Virus record (IMG/VR): IMGVR_UViG_3300045988_174170
DNA: 64,000 nucleotides
From: a virus
Direction: 5' to 3' (one strand)
Below are positions 1-61,951 of this stretch, in pieces (position 1 is the first letter of the stretch; the number at the start of each line of letters is the position of its first letter). The translations under genes were made by a program, and so were the position numbers. The notes beneath the pieces are model-generated. The model searched no databases. It was not told the DNA's origin and saw only the letters and a list, made by a program, of their open reading frames with translations.

Positions 1-1185
1 GACTACCTCATCAACGCACAAGTAGACCTCGGCGTATACCCATACCCAATCGAATGGACAACCTACGACAAAGAAAACCCCGAAGCGGAATGGGACTTCT
101 ACCCCGGACACGTCATCGCCAGCAACTTCTACAAAGCTATCCTAGAATACATCGACCGAGCACCCGAAAAGAACGACGCTTTCCTCGCCTTCCAAGGGCT
201 ACTAGTCTACCGCACAGACACAGAACTAGCATCCATCCAAGGCGAAGTAAGCCCCGACGAACAACACATCAACGGGTCACCATACATCGGGCGCTGTATC
301 ACCATCACCTCCAAAAAAGGTGGAACAGGTAAAACCACAACCTCACTAGGACTAGCAAACGCCCTAGCCAAATACAGCCAAAAAGCCGTAGAAGAAGGAC
401 GCGCCAAAACCCCACTAAAAATCATCGTCATCGACCTCGACCTACAAGACGGACAAGTAGGATACGACACAGGCAACCAAGCAAAAACCGTAGTAGGCAT
501 CTTTGACGACTTCCGCTCAGAATACCGCATACTAGGCGAAGACCCCGCCGAAGACTGGCGTATCATCAACGACAACATCAACCACAACACCCGAGTAGGA
601 GTAGACACACTACTAGCACCCGAAAACCCAACCGACCTCAACGACCTACGCCCACCATTCTACCGCACCATCATCCAGGCAATCCGCGAACACTACGATA
701 TTGTCATCATCGACACATCAGTACTACTCAACGACCCCTACATGAAAGAATGTGCATACCCCCTAACCCACAAACTGTACTACGTGACACAGCCACACTT
801 CAAGCCGCTAATTACCATGAAACGACAGTTTGTGTACGGTCTAGGCTCAGGACGGCACGGCGGAGGAATGGACCCGCGCCGCATCAGTGTATTCGTAAAC
901 GGCGTAGAAGACGAAGATACCGTCAAAGCAGGTTCAGCAGTATCACTCCCCGGAGTGCAAGACTACTGCGCCGCAGGAATCGAAGTGCTCACAGGCGTAC
1001 CATACCTACACAGGAAAGTACTAGACGCAACCAACCCGCGCCTACCCGGAGGATTCGACTACCTACTAGAAAACGACGGATACCGCGAAGGTATGGAAGT
1101 GCTACTATACGACATCATTAGGGGTACCGACTACCCGCTATTTGATGCGGAAACAGCTGAAGCTTTTGAAGCTGACTACCTATAA
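1..1185 (+). CDS. ParA/MinD-family P-loop ATPase (CpaE/TadZ-like), 5'-partial at window edge
   Basis: Frame 1 is open from nt 1 to TAA 1183-1185. Deviant Walker A 'ITSKKGGTGKTTTSLGLA' and a hydrophobic 'IVIIDT' Walker B-like strand. The track ORF 742..1185 is only its C-terminal part. Confidence 0.75.
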   Translation, partial: DYLINAQVDLGVYPYPIEWTTYDKENPEAEWDFYPGHVIASNFYKAILEYIDRAPEKNDAFLAFQGLLVYRTDTELASIQGEVSPDEQHINGSPYIGRCITITSKKGGTGKTTTSLGLANALAKYSQKAVEEGRAKTPLKIIVIDLDLQDGQVGYDTGNQAKTVVGIFDDFRSEYRILGEDPAEDWRIINDNINHNTRVGVDTLLAPENPTDLNDLRPPFYRTIIQAIREHYDIVIIDTSVLLNDPYMKECAYPLTHKLYYVTQPHFKPLITMKRQFVYGLGSGRHGGGMDPRRISVFVNGVEDEDTVKAGSAVSLPGVQDYCAAGIEVLTGVPYLHRKVLDATNPRLPGGFDYLLENDGYREGMEVLLYDIIRGTDYPLFDAETAEAFEADYL

Positions 1186-1200
1186 AATCAGCACCAAAAA

Positions 1201-1248
1201 ATTAAGGCGGGAAGCGACCTGTAAAAACAAGTCACTTCCCGCCTTAAT
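1201..1248. terminator. bidirectional hairpin terminator between convergent genes
   Basis: 14-bp perfect stem ATTAAGGCGGGAAG / CTTCCCGCCTTAAT with a 20-nt loop, sitting between ParA-like (+) and 1255..1524 (-). Confidence 0.55.
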
Positions 1249-1254
1249 GCACTT

Positions 1255-1524
1255 TCAGACTAGAGGAACCGTTACCTCATCATCCCAAGAATTGCTAGGA
1301 GCCGTATTTTCCACCACCTGCGGTGACTCAGGTATCACCCAGCCGATAAACAAGCAGATAGCTGATATTACAAGTAGCAAAATAAAAATAGTTCCGCTAC
1401 CATTCCAGAACTTAACATCACCCAACTGCCCAACAATAAATCCAAGAAACATGATTCCAGGGGCGATAATCAGCATAAGTGAAGCGCCAACCATGCAAGC
1501 CCAGCGCTTCACCTCACCTAGCAT
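1255..1524 (-). CDS. small membrane protein
   Basis: Track ORF 1255..1548. The GTG at 1548 abuts the SD, whereas the ATG at 1524 has GAGGTG 12 nt upstream. Two hydrophobic segments. Confidence 0.4.
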   Translation of the reverse strand: MLGEVKRWACMVGASLMLIIAPGIMFLGFIVGQLGDVKFWNGSGTIFILLLVISAICLFIGWVIPESPQVVENTAPSNSWDDEVTVPLV

Positions 1525-1597
1525 TTGAGAACTATTCACCTCAAACACCCACCTAACGGATAAACAATCATTTTACATGAGAATCATATCCGCAACT

Positions 1598-2104
1598 TTA
1601 CAGGCGCGTAACAACAAGAAGAAAGCCAAGCCCCAGAAATATTAAAACAATAAAACTTATAAGGATTTTAAGAACTTTCTGAACCTCGCCTGTTTTTTCG
1701 GTTTTACTATCCTTGCAGATGCCTGTGCTAACACTGTATGACCCAATGACAGTAGTGCATTTATCAGAAGGGGAAGAACTAGGAGTAGAAGGCGTGGGGC
1801 TAGGCGAAGAGGTTACTTGATTTGCAGGTGCTGACGCTGTGTGCTTAGGTAGTACATGCTGTGTAACACCATAAAGTGCGCCGCCAAGCAACCCAAGAGT
1901 GAAACAGATACCAATAATAACGGCAATAGTTTTACCCAGCTCTCGACGTTTTCACCGTGACTTCTCAGCATCCTGTGCTTTCTGGATACCTTCAACCCAA
2001 TCACACTGCAACTTATCGTAACCCAAGATACGGGCTGAGCCCGCATACGGTGATTCTTTTATCTGCATCGCCGCATTATGCTCTTTGGTATAGACCTTAG
2101 TCAT
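1598..2104 (-). pseudogene. paralog of the 2119..2661 membrane protein interrupted by an in-frame TGA (1952..1954); nonsense-inactivated or read-through/recoded
   Basis: ATG at 2104 with AAGGGG 13 nt upstream. 50 codons align to paralog residues 12-61 (SPYAGSARILGYDKLQCDWVEGIQKAQDAEKSR vs SPYMGAARVLGYDHKQRDWIKAIQDAKDAEEAR). TGA sits at the position of Val in the paralog. The same frame then continues (KRRELGKTIAVIIGI...) for 117 more codons into track ORF 1598..1891, including the TM segments. Confidence 0.45.
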
Positions 2105-2118
2105 AAGAGTTAGACCCC

Positions 2119-2661
2119 TTATTCTATTGCCCCAACGGAGGATATGCTATTTGAGCTTTTACTCGGTGGTGCGGGCAGGTTGTTCATTGCGTAAAATACA
2201 GCTCCAAGCAATGACAGAACGACGATAAGTGGGATAATTAGCCTTATGTTTTGAGCTTTTACGGCATGGAACATGCCAAAAAGAACTATCAAGAGGCTAA
2301 CTACCATAAACAGTTGCATTGCCCTGGAGGAGAAAGGGCTTGTACTGCTACTCGAACTAGTTGTACTTGCTGGTGTCGATTTAGGGAGCAAGTCACCCCA
2401 CGGCACTTGGGAAAGCCCGTAGATAGCCGCAATGATAAGACCGATAATCGCACCAATAATAACTAGAACACCTAGTACCTTGAGTGCTGATTTACCTAGC
2501 TCTTGGCGGGCTACCCGCGCCTCTTCAGCATCCTTAGCGTCCTGAATAGCTTTAATCCAGTCACGCTGTTTATGGTCATAACCCAAGACACGAGCGGCAC
2601 CCATGTACGGCGAGTTAGCTACACGCTCAATTATTCCTTGCCCAGTATTTGCGGTACTCAA
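2119..2661 (-). CDS. small membrane protein (soluble N-domain, TM helices, Ser/Thr-rich tail); likely PspA-associated anchor
   Basis: 180-aa ORF. TTG start 5 nt after the PspA-like stop, with AAAGAGAAAGGG upstream. Hydrophobic stretches LKVLGVLVIIGAIIGLIIAAIYGL and MQLFMVVSLLIVLFGMF. A paralog lies immediately downstream. Confidence 0.55.
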   Translation of the reverse strand: MSTANTGQGIIERVANSPYMGAARVLGYDHKQRDWIKAIQDAKDAEEARVARQELGKSALKVLGVLVIIGAIIGLIIAAIYGLSQVPWGDLLPKSTPASTTSSSSSTSPFSSRAMQLFMVVSLLIVLFGMFHAVKAQNIRLIIPLIVVLSLLGAVFYAMNNLPAPPSKSSNSISSVGAIE

Positions 2662-2666
2662 AAGAA

Positions 2667-3587
2667 CTACAGCCCTTTCTCTTTACGTAGAGCTTCCAGG
2701 CGTTCCTGTGCCGTCAAGCGGGTAAACTCATAGTCGTTACTACCCTCTTGAACTTCCCGCATACCCTGCAAACGAGCCTCGGCTTCCTCGGCAAGTTTAT
2801 CGAACGCGGAGCCGGTAGTCACGTCGCTAAGCTTGTCCTTCAAGCTATTCACCAGTTCTTGCTGTTTCTGTGAAGTATGCAAATCACCTAGGCGACGCAC
2901 CCCACGCTCAGCTTCCTTCAAGATACTAAGATTGCTCTTAAAAGCCGCCTCCGTATCCTTCAGGAACTTACGGCTAACCCTCAGAGAGTTTTCAGCGTCA
3001 ATAAGCTCGATAGCCAGCTCCTCATTGCGGGCGGCAACCTCTTCAGCATCACCCTTCTTACGCCAACTACTCTGACCCTTCAGGCCAGCTTCAATCTCTG
3101 ACTCTAGACGCTTAACCTTAGCCTCCAACATGGCAATATCATCTAGATAGTCAATGATATTAGGTGCCGAATCACCCAAAGCTTCACGTGTCTCAGCAAT
3201 CAGTTTCAGACCCTTAGCAATCTCTTCTTCGTTTTCCATACCTACACTGCTCATGCGTTCAAAAGCCCTTTCAAAAGTAATAATTTTCTCTAGCCTACTA
3301 TCAGACGGTAAACCCCGCCCAACGTAGTACACCTTAGCCGCCGCCAACGTCTCCCGCCTAATCTTCACCAAGTCAGAGGTAAACATCAGGTCAGCACCCT
3401 CACGTTTCTGTGCACCCCTAGCCTTAATAAGAGCACTCCTCAAACTTTCAGGGCACCCCGTGTCGTAATAAGTAAGCAAAGCATCAGCAAGCGTAAGCTT
3501 CTGCTCCAAAACAAGCATCGGTTCAAGCTCGGTAGGCGGCTCAACCTTAGCTTCACGTCGGAAAAACTTCAAAATAGAACCTTTCAT
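2667..3587 (-). CDS. PspA/IM30 (Vipp1/LiaH)-like coiled-coil protein (tentative)
   Basis: Track ORF 2667..3704. The start is more likely M40 (ATG 3587), because a TGACCG-17-TACAAT promoter lies downstream of the 3704 start. N-terminal amphipathic MKGSILKFFRRE, a long heptad-rich coiled coil, and a C-terminal 'SAFDKLAEEAEARLQGM' reminiscent of the PspA/Vipp1 'AFERMEEKV' helix. Similarity is judged by eye only. Confidence 0.45.
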   Translation of the reverse strand: MKGSILKFFRREAKVEPPTELEPMLVLEQKLTLADALLTYYDTGCPESLRSALIKARGAQKREGADLMFTSDLVKIRRETLAAAKVYYVGRGLPSDSRLEKIITFERAFERMSSVGMENEEEIAKGLKLIAETREALGDSAPNIIDYLDDIAMLEAKVKRLESEIEAGLKGQSSWRKKGDAEEVAARNEELAIELIDAENSLRVSRKFLKDTEAAFKSNLSILKEAERGVRRLGDLHTSQKQQELVNSLKDKLSDVTTGSAFDKLAEEAEARLQGMREVQEGSNDYEFTRLTAQERLEALRKEKGL

Positions 3588-3608
3588 AACAAAATTAATA
3601 ACAAACTC

Positions 3609-3637
3609 ATTGTAGCATGTGTGACATAAGGCGGTCA
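3609..3637 (-). promoter_or_regulatory. sigma70-like promoter TGACCG-17-TGcTACAAT for the PspA-like operon
   Basis: Read on the minus strand: -35 TGACCG (3637..3632), 17-bp spacer, extended -10 TGCTACAAT (3617..3609). Confidence 0.45.
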
Positions 3638-3731
3638 CCCCCGAAACACAAAGGCAAAACACGGTCAGCAAGCTATAGGTTACACAGCCTAAAAAAGACC
3701 CCAAACAACCAGTAAAGGAAACACAGACGCA

Positions 3732-5288
3732 ATGACCACTACCGCTGGGCTTTCACTCAACCAAATGCGCAAAGCAACAAAGCGACCCAACAACGTTGCT
3801 GAAACACGCAAACGACTCAACCGAATCAACGAAGAAGTAGCCGCCCACGCGGAAGTAACCCCCAACGAACAGCCAGCCACCAAAGAAAAAGAAGGCACCA
3901 CCCTCACAGCTGAAGAACTCAATGAAATCATTGAATCAGCAATCAGCGCCGCCGCCAACGCAAACCGAAGCCAAGAAAAACCAGAAAAGACTGAAACACC
4001 CAAAGTAGACACGTCACAAGCACGTACCATCAAGACAAGTCTAGGTGACGGCAACCCGCTACGATACTCAGTGCCCGAAGCCCGCGACGAACCGCCCGGC
4101 TTCCCAATCTGCGCAATCCTAACGGAAGCAATCAACAGGGGCGCAACAGACGTATACATCACCCCAGATACACCTATCCGCTTCAAAATCAAAGGCGGAA
4201 ACAACATCTACGACGGGTTCAAAATCCCAGACCGAACCGAAATTAACCGTATGATGAAGGTAATCATCCCAACAGGTGAACAAGACATCTTCACCTCACA
4301 GAAAGAGCTTGATACCTCATATACGCTACCCCTATACGAACATGCCGGTCGAAGGACACGTCTCAACGTCAGCGCGGCAAGCCCCGGATTCGGTAACGCG
4401 GTACTGTCATTCCGTATCCTAGCCGGAAACCTGTACCATCCAAAGTATTACGGGCTACCTGACGTAGTACTTAAAGCAATGCACCAATCCGGCGGACTTA
4501 TCGTATTCTCGGGACCAACCGGTTCAGGTAAAACAACCAGTATCGCGTCGCTACTACTCTACGCATCAAGGGAAGTACATCGACCCGACGCTAACGGCAA
4601 CCCAACAGGGCCGACAATCATCACCATTGAACGCCCAATTGAGTACCTGTTCGACAATAACAATGAGAAGGCAAACGGCTCACTCTTCATCCAGCGTGAA
4701 GTAGGACGTGACACATACTCATTCGATAACGCTATCTCATCAGCTATGCGACAGCAACCTAACATCATCCTTATTGGTGAGGTTAGGAAGTCAGTTGAAA
4801 TGCAAGCCGCTCTAACTGCCGCAACCACCGGTCACCTGACCTTGACCACAGTACACGCCGAAGATACAGCGGGTATTATCCAGCGCCTTATGAGTGCCGC
4901 AGACACCGGTGCGAACACCCGTGAAGACGTTCTACGTTCAATTGCCGCCTCTGGTCGAGTCTTTGTCACGCAGGCTCTAGTAGACCGAATCGACGGCGAA
5001 AAGATAGCTGTACACGAAGTTCTTGTCATCAAGCAGTCTGACCAGTCCCTCATTCAGGCAATTCAAGAAGGCGACTTCCGACATATCCGTCAGTCTCTAC
5101 AAGCAACAGGTGAAGACATGAGTAGTCGCCTAGTGGAACTTTGCCGCGAAGGTGGGCCTTGCTACGTCGAAGCGGCGTTGAAGCACAGCCCCGACCCCAA
5201 TAGGTTCTGGCAACTTATCCAGCTTGAAAAGTCGAACGGAATTGAGCACAACTATGACCCGAACAAGAAGGAAGAAGACCTGTGGTAG
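3732..5288 (+). CDS. PilT/GspE/VirB11-family secretion (traffic) ATPase
   Basis: Walker A 'FSGPTGSGKTTS', Asp box 'IITIERPIEY', Walker B 'NIILIGEVR', His box 'TGHLTLTTVHA'. The N-domain 'AILTEAINRGATDVYITPDTPIRFKIKG' is PilT-N-like. AAAGGA RBS. Confidence 0.85.
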   Translation: MTTTAGLSLNQMRKATKRPNNVAETRKRLNRINEEVAAHAEVTPNEQPATKEKEGTTLTAEELNEIIESAISAAANANRSQEKPEKTETPKVDTSQARTIKTSLGDGNPLRYSVPEARDEPPGFPICAILTEAINRGATDVYITPDTPIRFKIKGGNNIYDGFKIPDRTEINRMMKVIIPTGEQDIFTSQKELDTSYTLPLYEHAGRRTRLNVSAASPGFGNAVLSFRILAGNLYHPKYYGLPDVVLKAMHQSGGLIVFSGPTGSGKTTSIASLLLYASREVHRPDANGNPTGPTIITIERPIEYLFDNNNEKANGSLFIQREVGRDTYSFDNAISSAMRQQPNIILIGEVRKSVEMQAALTAATTGHLTLTTVHAEDTAGIIQRLMSAADTGANTREDVLRSIAASGRVFVTQALVDRIDGEKIAVHEVLVIKQSDQSLIQAIQEGDFRHIRQSLQATGEDMSSRLVELCREGGPCYVEAALKHSPDPNRFWQLIQLEKSNGIEHNYDPNKKEEDLW

Positions 5289-5688: not shown

Positions 5689-7332
5689 CTAGAAACTAAA
5701 AACAGATTCCGTATTCTCAAACACGCCACCTTCAGGACGTTCCAACCTGTAAGCAACAATACGGTCAGAAACCCCCTCCTCAGTAGCCCACTTATTCACG
5801 CGGCGAACCATAGTGTCCGATGTGCACAACCAAACCACCTTACTGAACACTGAACGGTCATCACGGTACTGCTCCAAAATCTCAACCAGCTTACCCCTAG
5901 ACTTAGAGGAACCACGCTCAACCTCAACCGCAATACTACGCGCCTCACCATTCTCACCACGCGGCAAAATAGCCACAATATCCGGCACATGGAAAGTCGC
6001 TGTAGAAGCCGCCGACAAAACAGCCCACATCCACTCATTACCACCAAAACACTCAGGGCCAACACCACTACCACCACCAGCACGCCACTCACGCAAAATC
6101 CTAGCACGCTCAGCAATCAGATAATCACGCATCTCAAGCGCATTATTACCCCTCAAAAGACCCTGCAAAGAACCATTAATCTGACGGTCAGACACAACGT
6201 TAAACCCACGAAGAGCAGAACCACCTGAAGAACGACCACCCCAAACACCAGTACCAAGATTCAATACGTCAGTAGACCCGCACCACAACAAGGCACCAAC
6301 ATATGTAACAAGAACCCTATGCGGAAACTCCATATTGCCCAAAGATGAACGCTTAAACGCGCCGCCACCAACACCAAACTCATCAAGCCCAACACGAGTA
6401 CCCACCCAAACACGGTGACCACCAGCACCCGCAACATCAACAGCCTCAATACAGCCCCTAGACTGCAAACCCTTCAAATACTTCAAAGCCGTAACACGAG
6501 TAGACACACCAAGCAAAAGCATAGTAGCCCTAACATCAACCCAACCAAAAATACCGATAAAGCTCATAATCTCAACCTCACGGCGAACACCCATAAGGCG
6601 AGGACGAACACCACCATCAGCACGCTCCTTAGAACGCAAACGCTTCACCCTAGCCTCAACAACATCAGGCGACTCGCCAACCAGCGGCGGCGACACAACA
6701 TCAACACCACCAACACGACTCAACCAATAAGAAGACTGCTCAACAGCCAAAACATTAGAAACTTCAACAGACGACATAACGCCGCCCCTCCCATCATAAT
6801 CAAACCTAAAAGAAGACAAATCAGAAACACCAACACCAACAGGTAACCCCAAAGAACCAGAACCGGAACCAGGCGGCGCAACAAGACCACCCAAAACCAA
6901 ATCCTCAACCCCCGCAGACTCACCCAAAGCACGGGCACCAACACCACCAACAGGAACCCTAAACCCATCAGCAACAGCGTTCAAATCAACCGAACCACCA
7001 AAAGACCAACGAGCACGCGGCGTAACACCAAATGAAAAACCACCATGAGTAAACACAGAACCAGACCAGCCCGACACAGAGGCATCCCACACATAACCCG
7101 AACATTCAGATTCAAACGACCTAAACGGCTTAGGAATATCCGAAAAATCCCTCACACCAACACCACGCTCAAGAACCGACGTGCCACCATGAGGCCAAAC
7201 AAACCCCTCCGTCACATGAGACAAACCAACACCAGAAGGGAACGCCCCCGGCAACAAGCCAGCACCAACACCAGCAATAGCACCAATAACAGGCTTAGAA
7301 ACAGCAGAACCAGCCAAAACCAGAACCTCCAA
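5689..7332 (-). CDS. replication-relaxation (Replic_Relax)-like winged-helix protein with ~260-aa Gly-rich N-terminal extension
   Basis: The C-terminal half 'REVEIMSFIGIFGWVDVRATMLLLGVSTRVTALKYLKGLQSRGCIEAV ... HVPDIVAILPRGENGEARSIAVEVERGSSKSRGKLVEILEQYRD' matches the architecture of plasmid replication-relaxation family proteins, recalled from memory. TTG start, so the start is uncertain. Confidence 0.5.
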   Translation of the reverse strand: MEVLVLAGSAVSKPVIGAIAGVGAGLLPGAFPSGVGLSHVTEGFVWPHGGTSVLERGVGVRDFSDIPKPFRSFESECSGYVWDASVSGWSGSVFTHGGFSFGVTPRARWSFGGSVDLNAVADGFRVPVGGVGARALGESAGVEDLVLGGLVAPPGSGSGSLGLPVGVGVSDLSSFRFDYDGRGGVMSSVEVSNVLAVEQSSYWLSRVGGVDVVSPPLVGESPDVVEARVKRLRSKERADGGVRPRLMGVRREVEIMSFIGIFGWVDVRATMLLLGVSTRVTALKYLKGLQSRGCIEAVDVAGAGGHRVWVGTRVGLDEFGVGGGAFKRSSLGNMEFPHRVLVTYVGALLWCGSTDVLNLGTGVWGGRSSGGSALRGFNVVSDRQINGSLQGLLRGNNALEMRDYLIAERARILREWRAGGGSGVGPECFGGNEWMWAVLSAASTATFHVPDIVAILPRGENGEARSIAVEVERGSSKSRGKLVEILEQYRDDRSVFSKVVWLCTSDTMVRRVNKWATEEGVSDRIVAYRLERPEGGVFENTESVFSF

Positions 7333-10874: not shown

Positions 10875-11441
10875 ATGAAGTCTTACGAAGATGACATCCT
10901 AAACGGGTATATGTTCTGGGATGACGATAAATGGAATTACAAGGCGAAGATGGTTACTGAAGCTGAAGGCTACCCCTGTGTGGAGCACGCTATCATGTGG
11001 GACAACAGGTTCCGCAAATCAGGCTGGGTAGCACTCCCAGGAGCCTTCACCCTAGACGAACCCCAACGAAAAATCGTCAAAGCTAAACCGGGTCAAGAAA
11101 CAGCTAAGCATCTGATGCACCTCATGGCGTTCCACGCAGGCAAGCACCAGAAAGCAACCGGCACCCCCTACAATATGTACGCGCACCTCAACGTATGGGT
11201 GAACTCCGGTGACGAAGACGACCCCCACGAAATCGGAATTGACGCAACATTTACCAACGACCCCGAAGGTAAAAACCCGGCAGGTGCTTCAATGGCAACC
11301 TACCTAGCAGGTGACTGGGGTGGGCTAACCATGAAAGAATGGCTCAAGCTAGACGGTAAAACCTACCCCGTAGGTTGCCCCATCTGGACAGACTGGGGCA
11401 ACCGAATCGAAATCCTCATCCACCCAAAACGGGGTAAGTAA
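10875..11441 (+). CDS. hypothetical protein, paralog family C
   Basis: 188 aa, paralog of 9235..9786. Confidence 0.7.
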   Translation: MKSYEDDILNGYMFWDDDKWNYKAKMVTEAEGYPCVEHAIMWDNRFRKSGWVALPGAFTLDEPQRKIVKAKPGQETAKHLMHLMAFHAGKHQKATGTPYNMYAHLNVWVNSGDEDDPHEIGIDATFTNDPEGKNPAGASMATYLAGDWGGLTMKEWLKLDGKTYPVGCPIWTDWGNRIEILIHPKRGK

Positions 11442-11904: not shown

Positions 11905-13422
11905 CTACAATAGGTCAGACACAACACCGGCAACATCCACCAAATCAACACCTAAGCCCGCAACCGGCGAACCCACCGGAACATCAACAACACCACCAAC
12001 AAACCCCTCGCCAACACCAGCAGAACCACCAAACAAACCAGCAGAACCACCACCACCATTCACAACACCAACCGGCGAACCATAACCCTCACTACCACCA
12101 ATAAAACCCAAACCCAAACCAGGCACAATATCAGAACCAGAACTAGAACCCGAACCAGAACCAGCAGAAATAGTACCTACAACATCACCCCAACAGGCAC
12201 GACCAACACCACCAACAACACTATCAACCCAATTACGGACAAGCCACCAACCGGCGAAACGACCCAAACCAGCAACCCTAGCCTCAACCGGCGAAACACC
12301 ACCCAAACCACCAACAGAACCAAACTCAACATCAGGCACATCAACCAATGCAACACCATCAACAGACCCAGACACACCAACCCCAACAGAACCCGCCACA
12401 TCAACAAAACCAGCAGGAGCCAAACGCGAACCAAACACCAAACCCCTATGTGTCACACCATCAACAACAACCTCAGACCCAACACCAACACCACCAGAAA
12501 CACCAACAACACCAGGAACAAAACCACCAGCACCCAAACCCGAAACACCCAAAACACCACGCCAACCAGAACCCCCACCACCAACAGACAAAACACCCAA
12601 AGAAGCCGAAGACAAACCCCAAGACACAGACAAACCACCAAAACCAGACACACCAGACACCACAGGAACACCCACCAAAGACACACCACCAGAACTACCA
12701 GAAACACCACTAGAAATACCCGAACCCACACCAACACTCAAAGGAAAACAACCCACCAAAGCATCACCAACACCACGCCAACCAGAACCCCCACCACCAA
12801 AAGGCAAAGCACCAAACCCCACAGACGAAACACTCAACCCCGAAAAATCACCAACAAAACCCTCCCACAAAGGAACACCAACACCACCAACAACAGACAA
12901 ACCACCACCAGAAACACACCCCAAAACACCACCACACTCCTCCACAAAAGACAAAGACACACCCTCAGACACAGACACCACACCACCACCAGAACACACA
13001 CCACCCACAGACACCAAAAACCCATCCCAAACACTAGAAACAGACCCGGACACACCAAAAGAATCAACAAAACCCACAGAAGCCTCATAGGGGCACTCAA
13101 ATACACTAGAGGTATAATCACCCACCCCAACACCAAAAGAACCCATAGAAGGCTCCACAGGGGGTGTAAAAGAATGACCATACCCCCACGCCTCCTCAAC
13201 ATTAGAAGCAATAAACCCCCTACCACTAACACCCCAAGCAGAAGACTGCCAACCACACTGCACAAAACCAGGCATAGTCAAACCACTAGCAGACGGGGGA
13301 TTATGACCAACAGGGGTATAAAGTACACCACCATCAGGTAGCGTATCACCTATCGGCGGGGCTGTTAGAGTGCCAGGAACCCACGTCTCAACAACACCAA
13401 TAACAGTGCTATCTACAGCCAT
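11905..13422 (-). CDS. Gly/Val/Ser-rich 505-aa protein with internal repeat GGGGSGWRGV
   Basis: Track ORF 11905..13443 (TTG). The ATG at 13422 is preceded by GGGAAAGGG. The non-repetitive N-terminal 100 aa and the terminator at its 3' end support this strand over the mirror-image + strand Thr/Asn ORF. Confidence 0.5.
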   Translation of the reverse strand: MAVDSTVIGVVETWVPGTLTAPPIGDTLPDGGVLYTPVGHNPPSASGLTMPGFVQCGWQSSAWGVSGRGFIASNVEEAWGYGHSFTPPVEPSMGSFGVGVGDYTSSVFECPYEASVGFVDSFGVSGSVSSVWDGFLVSVGGVCSGGGVVSVSEGVSLSFVEECGGVLGCVSGGGLSVVGGVGVPLWEGFVGDFSGLSVSSVGFGALPFGGGGSGWRGVGDALVGCFPLSVGVGSGISSGVSGSSGGVSLVGVPVVSGVSGFGGLSVSWGLSSASLGVLSVGGGGSGWRGVLGVSGLGAGGFVPGVVGVSGGVGVGSEVVVDGVTHRGLVFGSRLAPAGFVDVAGSVGVGVSGSVDGVALVDVPDVEFGSVGGLGGVSPVEARVAGLGRFAGWWLVRNWVDSVVGGVGRACWGDVVGTISAGSGSGSSSGSDIVPGLGLGFIGGSEGYGSPVGVVNGGGGSAGLFGGSAGVGEGFVGGVVDVPVGSPVAGLGVDLVDVAGVVSDLL

Positions 13423-13475
13423 ACTTAAAGCCCTTTCCCGCAATCACAAAAGTGTGACATAAACATAATTTTAGT

Positions 13476-14360
13476 GTGTTATATCTTCTACAAAATTCCG
13501 AGCGGAACACAACCCCCAGAACAGCAATCAAAAAAAATACCCATAGCAAAGGGCTAATAAAAGACGACCCCCAGCACAAAACCCGAATAAAAATAACAAA
13601 AATTTTCCAACACGCCACACCCACCAAAAAACACAAACCACCAAACCCAAAAAACAAGCGCCCATCACACCACCATGATAAACGCCACAACAAACGGGTA
13701 ACACGCAACACAACAGTACACAGCACACATACAGAACACAGAGAAGAACATACACAGCCACACAGGATACATACATACAGGAGAGCGCACACAGGCAGAC
13801 ACATATAGATACATGCAGACAATATACACAGACACACAATAGACACATAAGAGTAACAGGCACACAAGCAACAGACCCAAGGAGAACAACACACAAGACA
13901 CACACAACAGACACATACAGGGGAACAACACATAAGACACAGAACAAAGAAGACCACAAACACAGACACAATAGACACACAAGAGACAAAACACAGGAAC
14001 ACAAGAACACAACAAGGGCACAGGGGAACAGAGGGAACAAAAGCTAGACAGAACACACCAACAACACAGCTAGACAGAAACAACACAACAGACACACAAT
14101 AGACACACAGAGAACAGCTAGACAGAACACACGGGGGGTAACACACGGAACAGAGTAAAGGTAAAGAAGGCTAGACAGGGCACGGGGTAATAAGGGGTAG
14201 AAGAAGGGCGGGTAGAAGGGGAAGGAAAGGGGGGCGGGAAAGAGGAAGCGAAGGGTGGAAGGTAGAGCGGGGTGGTAGTAGGTGGGGTGGTGGTGTTTAT
14301 TCTCTGTTTTGTTTTGTTTTTTGGGGTGGTTTTTCTTGTTTTTGGCTGTTTTTTGGGGGT
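13476..14360. repeat. non-coding low-complexity tract graded CA-rich to GA-rich to GT-rich, with iteron-like direct repeats
   Basis: Three copies of CACAATAGACACA(T/C)A(A/G)GAG at about 13836, 13967 and 14096 with ~130-bp spacing. Four copies of GCTAGACAG at about 14043, 14069, 14117 and 14170. Purine-only GA stretch 14160..14280, GT-only stretch 14280..14420. Confidence 0.7.
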
Positions 14361-15250: not shown

Positions 15251-15424
15251 ATGATTGAGCCGTATGTGTCGTTGGTTTGGTGGGCTGTTGGTTGCCTTGT
15301 GGTTGCGGTGGCGTTTGAGGTGGTGGCTTTTAGGTGTGCGTCTGTTGGGCGGCGTTCTTGGTGTGGTTGGTTCTTCAGGCTGGGTTACAGTTTCGGTGGT
15401 TGAGCATAAGCGCCCTGGTAGGGA
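15251..15424 (+). CDS. 57-aa membrane peptide
   Basis: The ATG has GAGAGGA 10 nt upstream. The same 'GGA(A/G)GGATTTGnTnTTT-ATG' context recurs at 16024. Below the track size cut-off. Confidence 0.3.
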
Positions 15425-15656
15425 TAGTGCCTCTGAGATTCGTACTGCTTACACGTGGAGCGAGGTGCGCGGCAATGAGACTGTCGCTAAGACTACTACT
15501 GTTGAGCAGGATGACGTTTCGGTAGTTGAAGACGTTGCGGCGGGTGGCACGCCGTGGGTTGAGTACATTCCCATGTATCATCTTGTGCCTGCTGGCATTT
15601 TTGATGGTTCGCACGCTGACCCGGTTCAGGGTAAGCTCTGTGTTCGGGGGGCGTGA
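15255..15656 (+). CDS. hypothetical protein (alternative frame, TTG start; true start unclear)
   Basis: The C-terminal 85 aa are non-repetitive (VEHKRPGRDSASEIRTAYTWSEVRGNETVAK...), but there is no convincing RBS. Confidence 0.25.
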   Translation: MSRMCRWFGGLLVALWLRWRLRWWLLGVRLLGGVLGVVGSSGWVTVSVVEHKRPGRDSASEIRTAYTWSEVRGNETVAKTTTVEQDDVSVVEDVAAGGTPWVEYIPMYHLVPAGIFDGSHADPVQGKLCVRGA

Positions 15657-37827: not shown

Positions 37828-38295
37828 ATGTCCATCTTCACTAACGGCGGGGCACCTAGCCAGGAAGCCCTAACCGCCCTCCTGAACGCCCTAGCACCTG
37901 CAACCATTATGAGCGACACCTGTAGGCTAACGGCTATTCAGCCGCGCGGCGACTGGGGCTTCCATAATAGCCTGTTTGGGGCATGGCACCCTATTCACGC
38001 TGAGGTGCCAACTAGCGCCACCCCTAAGGATGTTCGAGAGGCACAGTTTGCCCTGCTCCACAAGGCACTCACTGGCTGTACGGTGCGTGAGCTTGCAGAA
38101 GCACTCACGGAAGCCCCTGTAGAGGGGTCTTGGGATTGGTGGTGTGCCATTTACGACAGCTACCTCGGTGTGCGTGTTCAGGGGCGCGGTAAGACCCTTG
38201 AAGATACTCGTAGGCACATTATGGCATGGGCTAGTAGCATGGAACGCTCAAACCTTCTAGAACACCTAACGCCTATCTCTGACGAATCCATCTGA
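37828..38295 (+). CDS. hypothetical protein (one of only three TGA-terminated genes)
   Basis: 155 aa, GAAAGGGGAAA RBS. The TGA is followed by 16 sense codons up to the next gene's RBS. Confidence 0.6.
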   Translation: MSIFTNGGAPSQEALTALLNALAPATIMSDTCRLTAIQPRGDWGFHNSLFGAWHPIHAEVPTSATPKDVREAQFALLHKALTGCTVRELAEALTEAPVEGSWDWWCAIYDSYLGVRVQGRGKTLEDTRRHIMAWASSMERSNLLEHLTPISDESI

Positions 38296-49744: not shown

Positions 49745-50089
49745 ATGGCATTTTTTGGACTCGAAGCAATTACTAAGATTATCGACAGCATCAAGAATAG
49801 TATTCCCTCCTGGGTTAGTTCCCTTGGAAACAAGGACGAAAAGCCTACCACTGATTCTGAGGAACACGACGATAAATCGTGGGGTAGTGAACCGCATTAC
49901 GGTTATCACGATGATGATTACGATGATGACTACGAGGACTATAACCCCGACGGGGAATATTATCACGAAGAATACGACGCTGATGACGGTTCCTATAGTG
50001 TGACTGAAATTGGGCGGCGCGGCGCTTACGATGATGATGACAACTTTAGTTTCGTCATGTTCTCGGAATATGACGACGACGATTATTAG
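49745..50089 (+). CDS. highly acidic Asp/Tyr-rich protein
   Basis: 114 aa with DDDYDDDYEDY and DDDDNFSFVMFSEYDDDDY. GAAAGA RBS. Confidence 0.5.
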   Translation: MAFFGLEAITKIIDSIKNSIPSWVSSLGNKDEKPTTDSEEHDDKSWGSEPHYGYHDDDYDDDYEDYNPDGEYYHEEYDADDGSYSVTEIGRRGAYDDDDNFSFVMFSEYDDDDY

Positions 50090-54745: not shown

Positions 54746-56314
54746 ATGTTCCACGACAGGAAGAATAACTACATAATGCAAGTAGCGAACCTACTAATTA
54801 TCGCCGTAGCCGCACTCATCATCATTGGTATCGGTGTGGCAATCTTCATGGCGGGTATCGTATCGGCAAGCCCCGGCGAGGTGAAGGTCATCTCAGGTCG
54901 CCGTGGTATCCGTGTACTGCAAGGTAAGACTGGTTGGCGTGTCCCGTTCATTGAGCGTGTAGACTCCATGACCGCAAGCATGGTATCTATCGACGTGAAG
55001 ACGAACGGTAGCACCCCCACCAACGACTTTATCAACGTGCAGGCTGAAGCTGAAGTGAAGGTACGTATCGGTCTAGACCGTAAGGAACTGTTCGAGGTTG
55101 CCGCTAGGAACTTCCTCGGTAGGACTGATATTGAAATCGCTGACTCGGTACGTGAAACCCTTGAAGGTCACCTACGTTCCATCATTGGTGAGATGGAGCT
55201 GAAGGCTATCGTCCAAGATAGGCAACAGCTCGCTAACAAGGTTCAGGAAAACGCAACGAACGACCTAGAGGAAATGGGTCTAGAAATCGTAGCGTTCAAC
55301 ATCCAGACCGTCCGTGACGATAAGGGTGTTATCGACAACCTTGGTGCTGACAATACCGAAAAGATTCGACAGGAAGCGGCAACCGCTAAGGCTATCGCAA
55401 CCCAGAAGATTGAGGAACAGCAGGCAAGCTCTGAAAAGCTCGCAAACGACGCACGTGTCGCCGCTGATAAGGAAATCGCTAAGAGGCAGAACGAGCTCGA
55501 AATCTCTAAGAGCCAGCTGAAGGCTGAAGCTGAGAAGGAACGAGCAATCGCTGAAGCCGCGTTCGAGACTGAGTTCGAGAACCAGCGAAGCCGAACCGAA
55601 GCCGCCCGCGCTAACGCTAACATTGTCCGACAGGAAAAGGAAGCACTAGTCAAGGCTAAGGAAGTTGAAGTCCGAAAGCAGACCCTAGTCGCTGAGGTTG
55701 AAGAAACCGCGAACACTGAACGTCGAGCACGTGAACAGCGCGCACAGGCTGAACTATTCGAGAGCATGAAGAAGTCCGAAGCTGAAGCGTACCGCCGCCA
55801 GCAGGAGGCAGAAGTGCTGAAGATGACCGCTGAAGCTGAGGCGTACCGCCGTCAGCAGGAAGCGGAAGCTCTCAAGATGACGGCAGAAGCGGAAGCAGAC
55901 GCAATCCGCCTACGTGGTGAAGCAGAAGCAGAAGCAGTGCGCCTCAAGCTTGAAGCAGAAGCAGACGGTCTAGACAAGAAGGCTGAAGCAATGCTCAAGA
56001 TGAAGGATGCCGCTGTTATTGAGATGCTTGTCAATGTCCTACCTGAAGTTGCCCGCGCTGTATCTGAGCCGCTGAATAATGTTGATAGCATCACCATGTA
56101 CGGTGAAGGTAATGCCGGGCAGATGGTTGGCGACATTATGACCAGCATGGATAAGGTAACCGCCGGACTAGGACTTGATGTTCGTGACCTGATTCAGGCA
56201 ACCGTAACCGGTCGAGCTATTGGTAGTGGAATCAATGCCGCTACCAAGAAGGATGCTGAGACGGTTTCGGCACCTCTGAACCTAGATGACCTAGAGAATG
56301 AGGACGCTATCTAG
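54746..56314 (+). CDS. flotillin (SPFH/band-7 domain protein, FloT/YuaG-like)
   Basis: An N-terminal TM is followed by an SPFH domain. 'LEGHLRSIIGEMELKAIVQDR ... LEEMGLEIVAFNIQTVRDDKGVIDNLG' closely matches Bacillus FloT 'LEGHLRSILGSMTVEEIYKNR...LAKMGLVIVSFTIKDVRDKNGYLESLG'. A long EA-repeat coiled coil (AEAEAYRRQQEAE, twice) precedes a C-terminal 'MLVNVLPEVARAVSEPLNNVDSITMYGEG' that matches FloT 'MIVKMLPEYAKQAAAPLSNIDKITVVDTG'. The alternative start at ATG 54776 is possible. Confidence 0.85.
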   Translation: MFHDRKNNYIMQVANLLIIAVAALIIIGIGVAIFMAGIVSASPGEVKVISGRRGIRVLQGKTGWRVPFIERVDSMTASMVSIDVKTNGSTPTNDFINVQAEAEVKVRIGLDRKELFEVAARNFLGRTDIEIADSVRETLEGHLRSIIGEMELKAIVQDRQQLANKVQENATNDLEEMGLEIVAFNIQTVRDDKGVIDNLGADNTEKIRQEAATAKAIATQKIEEQQASSEKLANDARVAADKEIAKRQNELEISKSQLKAEAEKERAIAEAAFETEFENQRSRTEAARANANIVRQEKEALVKAKEVEVRKQTLVAEVEETANTERRAREQRAQAELFESMKKSEAEAYRRQQEAEVLKMTAEAEAYRRQQEAEALKMTAEAEADAIRLRGEAEAEAVRLKLEAEADGLDKKAEAMLKMKDAAVIEMLVNVLPEVARAVSEPLNNVDSITMYGEGNAGQMVGDIMTSMDKVTAGLGLDVRDLIQATVTGRAIGSGINAATKKDAETVSAPLNLDDLENEDAI

Positions 56315-60961: not shown

Positions 60962-61951
60962 ATGGCAACCGATGTTGTGATACCCGCCCTGTTTCTAGAC
61001 CTCCCATGCAACCCATATTCACTAGAGTACTGGGAACTTACCGCTTTCCCCGATAGTTTCAAGGTAATATCTCTCATTGGTAGGGAGCAGTGGCTTATGG
61101 ACATCTACGTGCAGGGCGGTATCCCCGCTGTGGCAAAAATCCTTGACATTCCTGTTTCAACACTCACCTATCGGTGGTGGAAGTTCAAGAAACACCACTG
61201 GAAAGACCTAGCTGTAGAGCCCCCGTTTGGGATTAGGTGCGAATATGACTATGAGAAGCTATTGGCAGACGATTACTGTATCCATGAGACAGCTTACAGT
61301 AAAGGCTCTAAATGCATAACTTGGAAACTTGAAAGGTTCTGCATGGCTTCCGAGAAACGGCGAGAACTTAAAGAGCTTCTAGAAGAAGCAAGTAAAGGCA
61401 TTGAGTTGTCATATGAAGACCGGGCATGGATACTTTTCGCACCCCGCCTAGACCTTGGACTATTGTCGCTAGTAGACTACGCGGAACTGTGCAACCTTGA
61501 CAAGGAAGTGTCGGCACTCATTATCAAAAACCTTCTAGCTTACAAGAAGCCCCCACCGGAAAAGCTTGTTGATGGTCGCCCCGAATGGATGCGCCAATAC
61601 ACACTAAACACAGCATTTACCGACGATAACGACAAGGAACCCGCCTACAAGAAACAGCTACTAATGCGCCGGTACCGCAAGAGCCAATGCTACAAACTCG
61701 CATACCCACGGTACAAGAGTAGGAAGTTTCGGGTACTCTGGAACGAACCTCAAACACATAACGGGGTAACCTTCTATCCGGTTGAAGCACTATGGAACCT
61801 CATGGCTGAAAACAAAGGGCACCCAACTAGCATTAAAGCCGGTTCACGCGGTGGATATGTGACAGCTGAATATGTTGCAGAGAACGGCTGTGGCACATGG
61901 ATTCTAGAAGGCGAATACGCCACAGTGAAGAAATCCGCTAATGAAAGGTGA
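60962..61951 (+). CDS. family H protein (HTH-like N-domain); TGA stop in frame with next gene
   Basis: 329 aa. The C-terminal block 'KLAYPRYKSRKFRVLWNEPQTH.GVTFYPVEAL....GGYV' is shared with 59154. The TGA at 61949 overlaps the GAAAGGTGA RBS of 61958. Confidence 0.6.
   Translation: MATDVVIPALFLDLPCNPYSLEYWELTAFPDSFKVISLIGREQWLMDIYVQGGIPAVAKILDIPVSTLTYRWWKFKKHHWKDLAVEPPFGIRCEYDYEKLLADDYCIHETAYSKGSKCITWKLERFCMASEKRRELKELLEEASKGIELSYEDRAWILFAPRLDLGLLSLVDYAELCNLDKEVSALIIKNLLAYKKPPPEKLVDGRPEWMRQYTLNTAFTDDNDKEPAYKKQLLMRRYRKSQCYKLAYPRYKSRKFRVLWNEPQTHNGVTFYPVEALWNLMAENKGHPTSIKAGSRGGYVTAEYVAENGCGTWILEGEYATVKKSANER

Follow-up and report, generated by a model that had tools for sequence, protein, structure and literature searches.

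The 64,000-nucleotide stretch of DNA analysed here (IMG/VR record IMGVR_UViG_3300045988_174170; hereafter the window) carries on its minus strand a membrane-protein gene, gene B, whose reading frame is interrupted by a TGA, and the question raised by this locus is whether the codon represents an ordinary nonsense mutation, a site of read-through or recoding, a sense codon of a deviant genetic code, or an error in the sequence. Translation of positions 1598-2104 gives an ORF that starts with an ATG at 2104, runs for 50 codons and meets the TGA at codon 51 (plus-strand 'tca' at 1952-1954), beyond which the same frame stays open for 117 more codons, up to a TAA at 1598-1600. In this our re-translation agrees with the initial annotation of the locus, which had weighed a recent nonsense pseudogene, a two-product gene and a sequencing error. 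We consider it highly probable that an ordinary CGA-to-TGA nonsense allele truncates gene B to its 50-residue N-domain and that the loss is tolerated, gene B or its module being dispensable and its paralog, gene A, being intact.

The features of the region, together with the lesions found in related loci, are collected in Table 1. A promoter-like site and a terminator-like hairpin appear to bracket four minus-strand genes as a single operon, in which gene B would be the third, preceded by the genes for a coiled-coil protein and for A and followed by that for a small membrane protein. Gene order around B is shared by the related loci that were fetched via homologs of A or B, and the small membrane gene is called downstream of gene B in all related loci that reach past it (in L007, from the ORF list). 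Gene A has 56 homologs (65-100% identity), all of them on metagenome contigs, and the identifiable sources are all loci of this element family in human oral samples.

Table 1. Features of the gene B region (positions in the window unless a related locus is named) and lesions of gene B in related loci.
Feature	Position	Strand	Remarks
CpaE/ParA-like AAA_31 protein, end portion	1..1185	+	
Intrinsic-terminator-like hairpin	1202..1247	-	20-bp stem, then T run; would end the four-gene operon
Small two-TM membrane protein, last of operon	1255..1548	-	97-aa ORF, GTG start; relatives called at 89-95 aa
Gene B	1598..2104	-	Paralogous to gene A; the intact relatives L002, L003 and L004 have 168 codons; here interrupted at codon 51
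Rest of gene B beyond the TGA, predicted to be untranslated	1598..1951	-	Frame still open; juxtamembrane stretch, TM1, linker, KCTTVIGSYSVSTGICK loop, TM2
In-frame TGA, codon 51 of gene B	1952..1954	-	From CGA (Arg), most simply by one C-to-T transition; same TGA in L001 and L018
Residual 50-codon ORF of gene B	1955..2104	-	Predicted cytoplasmic N-terminal domain; 50-aa gene call on 10 contigs
Gene A, intact paralog	2119..2661	-	180 aa, TTG start; same N-domain, three predicted TM helices, Ser/Thr linker
Coiled-coil gene, first of operon	2667..3590	-	307 aa; 80-97% identical across lineages
Sigma-70-like promoter match	3609..3638	-	Upstream of the coiled-coil gene; consensus match only
T2SSE/PilT-like ATPase	3732..5288	+	
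VirB4/HerA-like ATPase	Just outside the window		From the gene order of related loci
CAG to TAG, codon 44 of gene B	L013		DNA alignment
CAA to TAA, exactly codon 51 of Q-type gene B	L008, L009		Intact L004 has CAA; DNA alignment
CGA to TGA, codon 54 of gene B	L005		CGA kept in 97.7%-identical L006; DNA alignment
1-nt deletion, ~codon 57 of gene B	L010, L011, L012		DNA alignment
2-nt insertion, ~codon 93 of gene B	L006		DNA alignment
Deletion of ~2 kb	L007 (IMG/VR UViG_3300008748_000172), 5880-5960		Removes the coiled-coil gene, A, and B save its last ~12 codons

The kinship of the two paralogs, described at first as a residue-for-residue match between the N-terminus of gene B and 2119..2661, was borne out by alignment. 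An intact close relative of gene B (P0064) aligns with gene A without a gap, 26 of 54 residues being identical (48%; E = 7e-19), and the stop of the window falls, as had been claimed, opposite a Val of gene A, in '...EEARVARQELGK'. The N-domain shared by the gene B family shows the motif SPYAG.AR.LGYD..Q.DW in the family alignment. In an AF2 model of B (pLDDT 61), helices at residues 7-16 and 19-27 are followed by a long helix (30-84) that runs via a basic juxtamembrane stretch into TM1; according to alignment and model together, TM1 is followed by a disordered Ser/Pro/Thr linker, a KCTTVIGSYSVSTGICK hairpin and a C-terminal TM2. The nearly invariant KCTTVIGSYSVSTGICK loop, with its two Cys residues, presumably lies outside the cell. 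In the model, the stop at codon 51 cuts within the long helix, a little ahead of the membrane. With an intact B as query, 45 family members were retrieved, mostly of 160-196 aa. The plan of gene B is also kept by the distant members P0108 and P0110.

The segment after the Cys loop, including TM2 (window 1598-1700; alignment columns ~400-515), occurs as two sharply different alleles, so that the C-terminal third of gene B reads either ...KTDKTGEVQKVLKIL...VVTRL or ...VNDSHS.QVDLKF...DRDILLM. These alleles are shuffled among otherwise close lineages, a pattern that indicates recombination within gene B.

Searches of A, B, the coiled-coil protein and their neighbours against Pfam, NCBIfam and PHROGs returned nothing significant. 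A profile built from A and B and run against 1.84 billion representative proteins retrieved only 14, all belonging to the same family or being frameshifted versions of its members, and a search with the 50-aa product as query found only two short proteins, one of which (P0105) led to the allele with TAG at codon 44.

Codon 51 was read in the three related lineages fetched via their gene A proteins (L002, L003 and L004), in which gene B is intact at 168 codons. The codon is CGA (Arg) in L002, TGG (Trp) in L003 and CAA (Gln) in L004. Among full-length relatives of at least 90% identity, position 51 is Arg in nearly all, the exception being P0061 with Trp; in the divergent (Q-type) gene B it is Gln. 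TGA at this codon is confined to one shallow lineage, that of the window, and because the closest relatives have Arg, encoded by CGA, the TGA is most simply read as one C-to-T change from CGA. In L002 and the close relatives, with their Arg, the sense codon is a single substitution away from the stop, which is the picture expected of the recent nonsense pseudogene proposed among the initial options.

The window is not alone in having lost an intact gene B. Further lesions were found by tracing short members of the gene B family back to their contigs, and all point lesions of the gene (Table 1) were confirmed in one DNA alignment. The loci that carry them differ by 5-18% in DNA, and the lesions are therefore independent; gene B has been broken in at least five lineages besides that of the window. 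Other frameshifted members of the family are P0106, P0107, P0109 and P0111. Truncation or deletion also affects a few variants of gene A (P0054 to P0056). The flanking ATPase genes were called at full length in every fetched locus that spans them completely.

Several of the disrupted loci show peculiarities of their own. The deletion in L007 is clean, extending from the leader region of the module to the last ~12 codons of B, and in P0056 (a JGI contig) the leader region is fused to the middle of gene A; judging from such loci, the coiled-coil/A/B module appears to behave as a dispensable cassette. In P0103, a member of the gene B family, one nucleotide is deleted after ...ELG (locus L010, 2650-2720). 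P0080, seen at the protein level only, apparently combines the frameshift of P0103 with a compensating one; its TM1 would then be read in an alternative frame, LLPLLLASVSLLGCLVAHFMV, which is still hydrophobic, as in a frame-tolerant transmembrane segment.

The positions of the nonsense mutations call for a closer look, since they suggest a refinement of the nonsense explanation, rather than an alternative to it: convergent truncation may have been selected, the stops before TM1 retaining a soluble N-domain of 43-53 aa and removing the surface part of B. Four independent nonsense mutations lie at codons 44, 51, 51 and 54, between the conserved N-domain and TM1, although, of the transition paths that lead to a stop, only three of ten in the R-type gene and one of six in the Q-type gene fall in this zone; the chance that all four would do so is 0.3^3 x 0.17, or ~0.005, a value uncorrected for the post hoc choice of the zone. 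Moreover, none of the nine placed lesions (four nonsense, five frameshifts) lies in codons 1-43. Against this, the zone was set after the data had been seen, and codons 42-58, a charged juxtamembrane stretch, hold 11 of the ~50 codons that are one step from a stop. Detection is also biased, in that N-terminal fragments shorter than ~40 aa are rarely called or retrieved. The frameshifts at about codons 57 and 93 and beyond show that plain loss is tolerated, as does deletion of the whole module, N-domain included, in L007 (also P0056). We regard selection for truncation as unlikely. If it were real, the N-domain peptide, provided that it is stable, might act as a regulator, or compete for a partner shared with A or the coiled-coil protein; the surface part of B might be disadvantageous, for instance by offering a target to phage, immunity or exclusion; and the stops would amount to an irreversible convergent switch that sheds the Cys loop and alters the membrane module or the outside appearance of the host.

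On the coding strand, each of the four nonsense mutations is a C-to-T change, in a region with a strong strand skew. Strand-biased deamination of C to T was considered as their cause and rejected, there being no excess of C>T: polarised singleton substitutions in six lineages, per 1000 bases of the respective type, amount to 58 for C>T, 72 for G>A, 62 for A>G and 57 for T>C.

Programmed read-through or recoding of the UGA, by which gene B would yield a short soluble and a full-length membrane form, must be weighed next. The frame past the TGA is open, few genes of the element use TGA as a stop, and one ortholog has TGG at the site, as would be produced by near-cognate decoding of UGA by tRNA-Trp. 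The frame is likewise fully open in the three other nonsense alleles, and this too is what a read-through gene would be expected to look like; we attribute the open frames to the youth of the alleles. A recoding site would be expected to recur, but the TGA is found in one shallow lineage only, with CGA in the closest relatives and no conserved stop at codon 51 across orthologs (CGA, TGG, CAA), and other lineages have TAA at the same codon or TAG at codon 44, which are not the usual leaky stop. Nor did we detect a stable structure downstream of the TGA: the minimum free energy of the 76 nt around and after it is -15.8 kcal/mol, compared with a shuffle mean of -14.4 (z = -0.51), and an Rfam scan of the window returned a tRNA-Glu and no recoding element. 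Finally, orthologous gene ends show TGA exchanged for TAA or TAG (see below). The suggestion in the initial annotation of a two-product design, with a soluble N-domain beside a membrane-anchored form, is thus contradicted by the ortholog alleles, the other stops and the lack of an RNA fold; the comparison of orthologs that was to decide on recoding shows most copies intact with CGA, TGG or CAA and the others cut by different lesions. Programmed read-through is accordingly judged very unlikely. A different matter is background leakage. UGA followed by A is not a strong terminator context in E. coli. Since TGA is strongly shunned as a stop, termination at UGA may be inefficient in the host, and some full-length product of gene B is possible on that account.

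The rarity of TGA also bears on the genetic code itself. Among greedy, non-overlapping ORFs of at least 80 aa, 52 end in TAA, 32 in TAG and 6 in TGA; with a threshold of 50 aa the numbers are 56, 34 and 12, respectively. Several of the TGA-ended ORFs in both sets are short or antisense to better ORFs, leaving three believable TGA-ended genes (15255..15656, 37828..38295 and 60962..61951), the same number that had been counted initially among roughly 90 confident genes. TGA accounts for ~3-7% of gene ends and TAG for ~35%, the latter being about ten times commoner as a stop, which is a real peculiarity in a sequence of 49% GC and may stem from the release factor or tRNA set of the host.

Could TGA be read as sense, by genetic code 4 or 25, in the element or in its host, or encode selenocysteine? 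The skewed stop usage recalls genomes that lack RF2. We compared orthologous gene ends with three loci of 15-21 kb from other lineages (L014 to L016; ~85% protein identity). The gene at 37828..38295 ends in TGA in the window and in TAA in L015, and that at 49745..50089 ends in TAG in the window and in TGA in L016; most other orthologous stops are the same. The TGA at 61949-61951, which ends 60962..61951, lies inside the Shine-Dalgarno sequence of the next gene, AAGGTGAT, and is conserved; at the equivalent place (~11003-11011), L015 has a TGA-TAG tandem. Because TGA swaps with TAA and TAG at orthologous ends, it terminates despite its rarity, and on this comparison it is a true stop in the element family. 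Read with the standard code, the window is densely packed with ORFs, none of the other conserved genes in the 64 kb requires an in-frame TGA, and the tRNA-Glu is the sole tRNA in the window. As for selenocysteine, the site is occupied by Arg, Trp or Gln in the orthologs and never by Cys or Sec, no hairpin beyond chance expectation and no SECIS-like fold is present downstream, and the Rfam scan gave no match. A sense reading of TGA is, on all these grounds, extremely improbable. Rarity of a stop codon alone is a poor ground for inferring a reassigned code; TGA is rare here, yet it terminates.

The end of 60962..61951 was at first a candidate for a second in-frame TGA, as the next gene lies in the same frame. 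This was rejected: with the TGA inside the Shine-Dalgarno sequence and a TAG next to it in L015, these are two genes. In L014, ~1.6 kb of extra DNA lies between them.

That the TGA might be a sequencing or assembly error, an option left open initially, has a negligible probability: gene calls for an identical 50-aa product are present on 10 contigs, drawn from JGI, ENA and Logan assemblies, and the TGA itself was read directly in two ENA assemblies, namely in L001, whose sequence matches that of the window at 100% over 5.4 kb, and in L018, a recombinant haplotype carrying the other C-terminal allele of gene B. An allele that is present in several contigs and on a recombinant haplotype is neither an error nor a brand-new mutation.

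The age of the allele can be bracketed from the other side as well. Between copies of gene B, pN/pS is 0.14-0.40 both before and after codon 51, pairs with the window included, and for the part past the TGA compared with relatives it is 0.14-0.22, a low value that seems mostly to reflect history before the stop arose. By these ratios, gene B appears to have been functional and under purifying selection until recently, and the stop in the window appears to be recent relative to the divergence between lineages. The gene B of the window has no second lesion beyond the TGA. In L018 the nearly invariant Cys116, past the stop, is changed to Phe; this hints at drift in the untranslated remainder, in a contig whose coverage of 1.46x leaves room for a read error. 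A set of numerous young and independent lesions, with no decayed copies of older date, may mean that loss alleles are frequent but short-lived, or that losses are locally favoured.

To return to the nonsense allele, which we prefer as explanation, codon 51 of B changed from CGA (Arg) to TGA in the lineage of the window, most simply by one C-to-T transition. With the standard code and TGA as a true stop, translation would end after 50 residues and, under standard decoding, yield nothing beyond the 50-codon ORF; those parts of B that span the membrane or lie outside the cytoplasm would not be made, barring a background leak at UGA in the host. No functional full-length B would then be produced. 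The allele would be young, having neither a second lesion nor visibly relaxed constraint past the stop, and old enough to have reached several samples and a recombinant haplotype. It is one among many independent loss-of-function lesions of B in these ~290-kb human oral elements, and such lesions suggest that B can be dispensed with, as can the entire coiled-coil/A/B module in some lineages, the loss of B probably being buffered by the intact paralog A. The locus should accordingly be annotated as a disrupted gene and not as a case of recoding. The repeated loss of B, or of the three-gene module, from otherwise well-conserved elements marks the module as conditionally useful.

The element family itself consists of contigs of ~250-313 kb from human oral metagenomes. 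It is nearly unannotated: the 86 ORFs scanned gave matches to only 6 Pfam families and to 7 PHROGs, of which six have an unknown function. No close relatives were found among GTDB representative genomes, PLSDB plasmids or INPHARED phages, and IMG/VR provided one contig; the matches in PLSDB and INPHARED were distant and PilT- or VirB11-like only. Identity with the giant oral elements known as Inocles was considered and rejected, as these have 24-32% GC (PMC12340149), compared with 49% in the window. The recurrent, clustered truncations of B and the element, almost unannotated as it is, are points of modest interest.

Two further observations concern the window as a whole. Over 11905-13443 the plus strand consists almost only of A and C (GC skew -0.50, AT skew +0.70), and a 512-aa minus-strand ORF within it would consist of G/T-only codons; T is almost absent from 13480-14140, only purines occur at 14140-14260, and the strand turns G/T-rich from ~14260, with a flip in the sign of the skew. 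Throughout the first 14 kb the plus strand is rich in A and C whatever the orientation of the genes. The pattern could represent a strand switch of the origin or terminus type, or an unusual low-complexity region. The second observation is an SPFH/flotillin-like gene (Band_7 + Flot) at 54746-56314, whose product is the most conserved protein seen (96-97% across lineages) and stands out in a window otherwise almost without known domains.

Among known systems, the operon invites comparison with the PspA/LiaH stress modules and their partners PspB, PspC and LiaI. As in those modules, the gene for a long coiled-coil protein is followed by genes for small membrane proteins, and a long helical hairpin with shorter helices is predicted for the C-terminal half of the coiled-coil protein; by eye, its 'GSAFDKLAEEAEARL' stretch also recalls the C-terminal region of PspA. 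In a single-sequence AF2 model (mean pLDDT 57) it has helices at 120-172 and 178-236, forming the hairpin 120-236, and then three shorter ones. Unlike PspA, however, it matches neither PF04012 nor any NCBIfam or PDB sequence: in searches up to E = 10, DUF745 appeared at E = 0.08-0.15 only, and the best PDB sequence matches (E ~0.14-0.4) are unrelated proteins. A Foldseek search of the model against PDB gave no hit at E <=0.001, Vipp1 ranking 7, 20 and 23 among generic coiled coils. The 'PspA-like' neighbour named in the initial annotation was hence not confirmed, and the N-domain of A and B matches no known family.

Like the phages and bacteria in which a stop codon is reassigned (TGA as Trp or Gly; codes 4 and 25), the element shuns TGA as a stop and makes high use of TAG; unlike in those genomes, standard-code genes are uninterrupted by TGA here, and TGA swaps with TAA and TAG at gene ends. 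With programmed UGA read-through or selenocysteine recoding in bacteria the locus shares an in-frame UGA beyond which the frame stays open and conserved. It differs from such sites in that the UGA is not conserved, the orthologs have no Cys or Sec, no hairpin lies downstream, and other lineages carry UAA and UAG at or near the position.

The closest known counterpart of the interrupted gene B is the lineage-specific nonsense pseudogene, or loss-of-function polymorphism, with a redundant paralog. As in that class, a single transition separates a shallow allele from intact orthologs, and many independent young disruptions are combined with long-term purifying selection where the gene is intact. 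The gene B locus departs from the class in two respects: its nonsense hits cluster at codons 44-54, twice at the very same codon and more tightly than naive expectation, and the frames downstream of them are all still intact.
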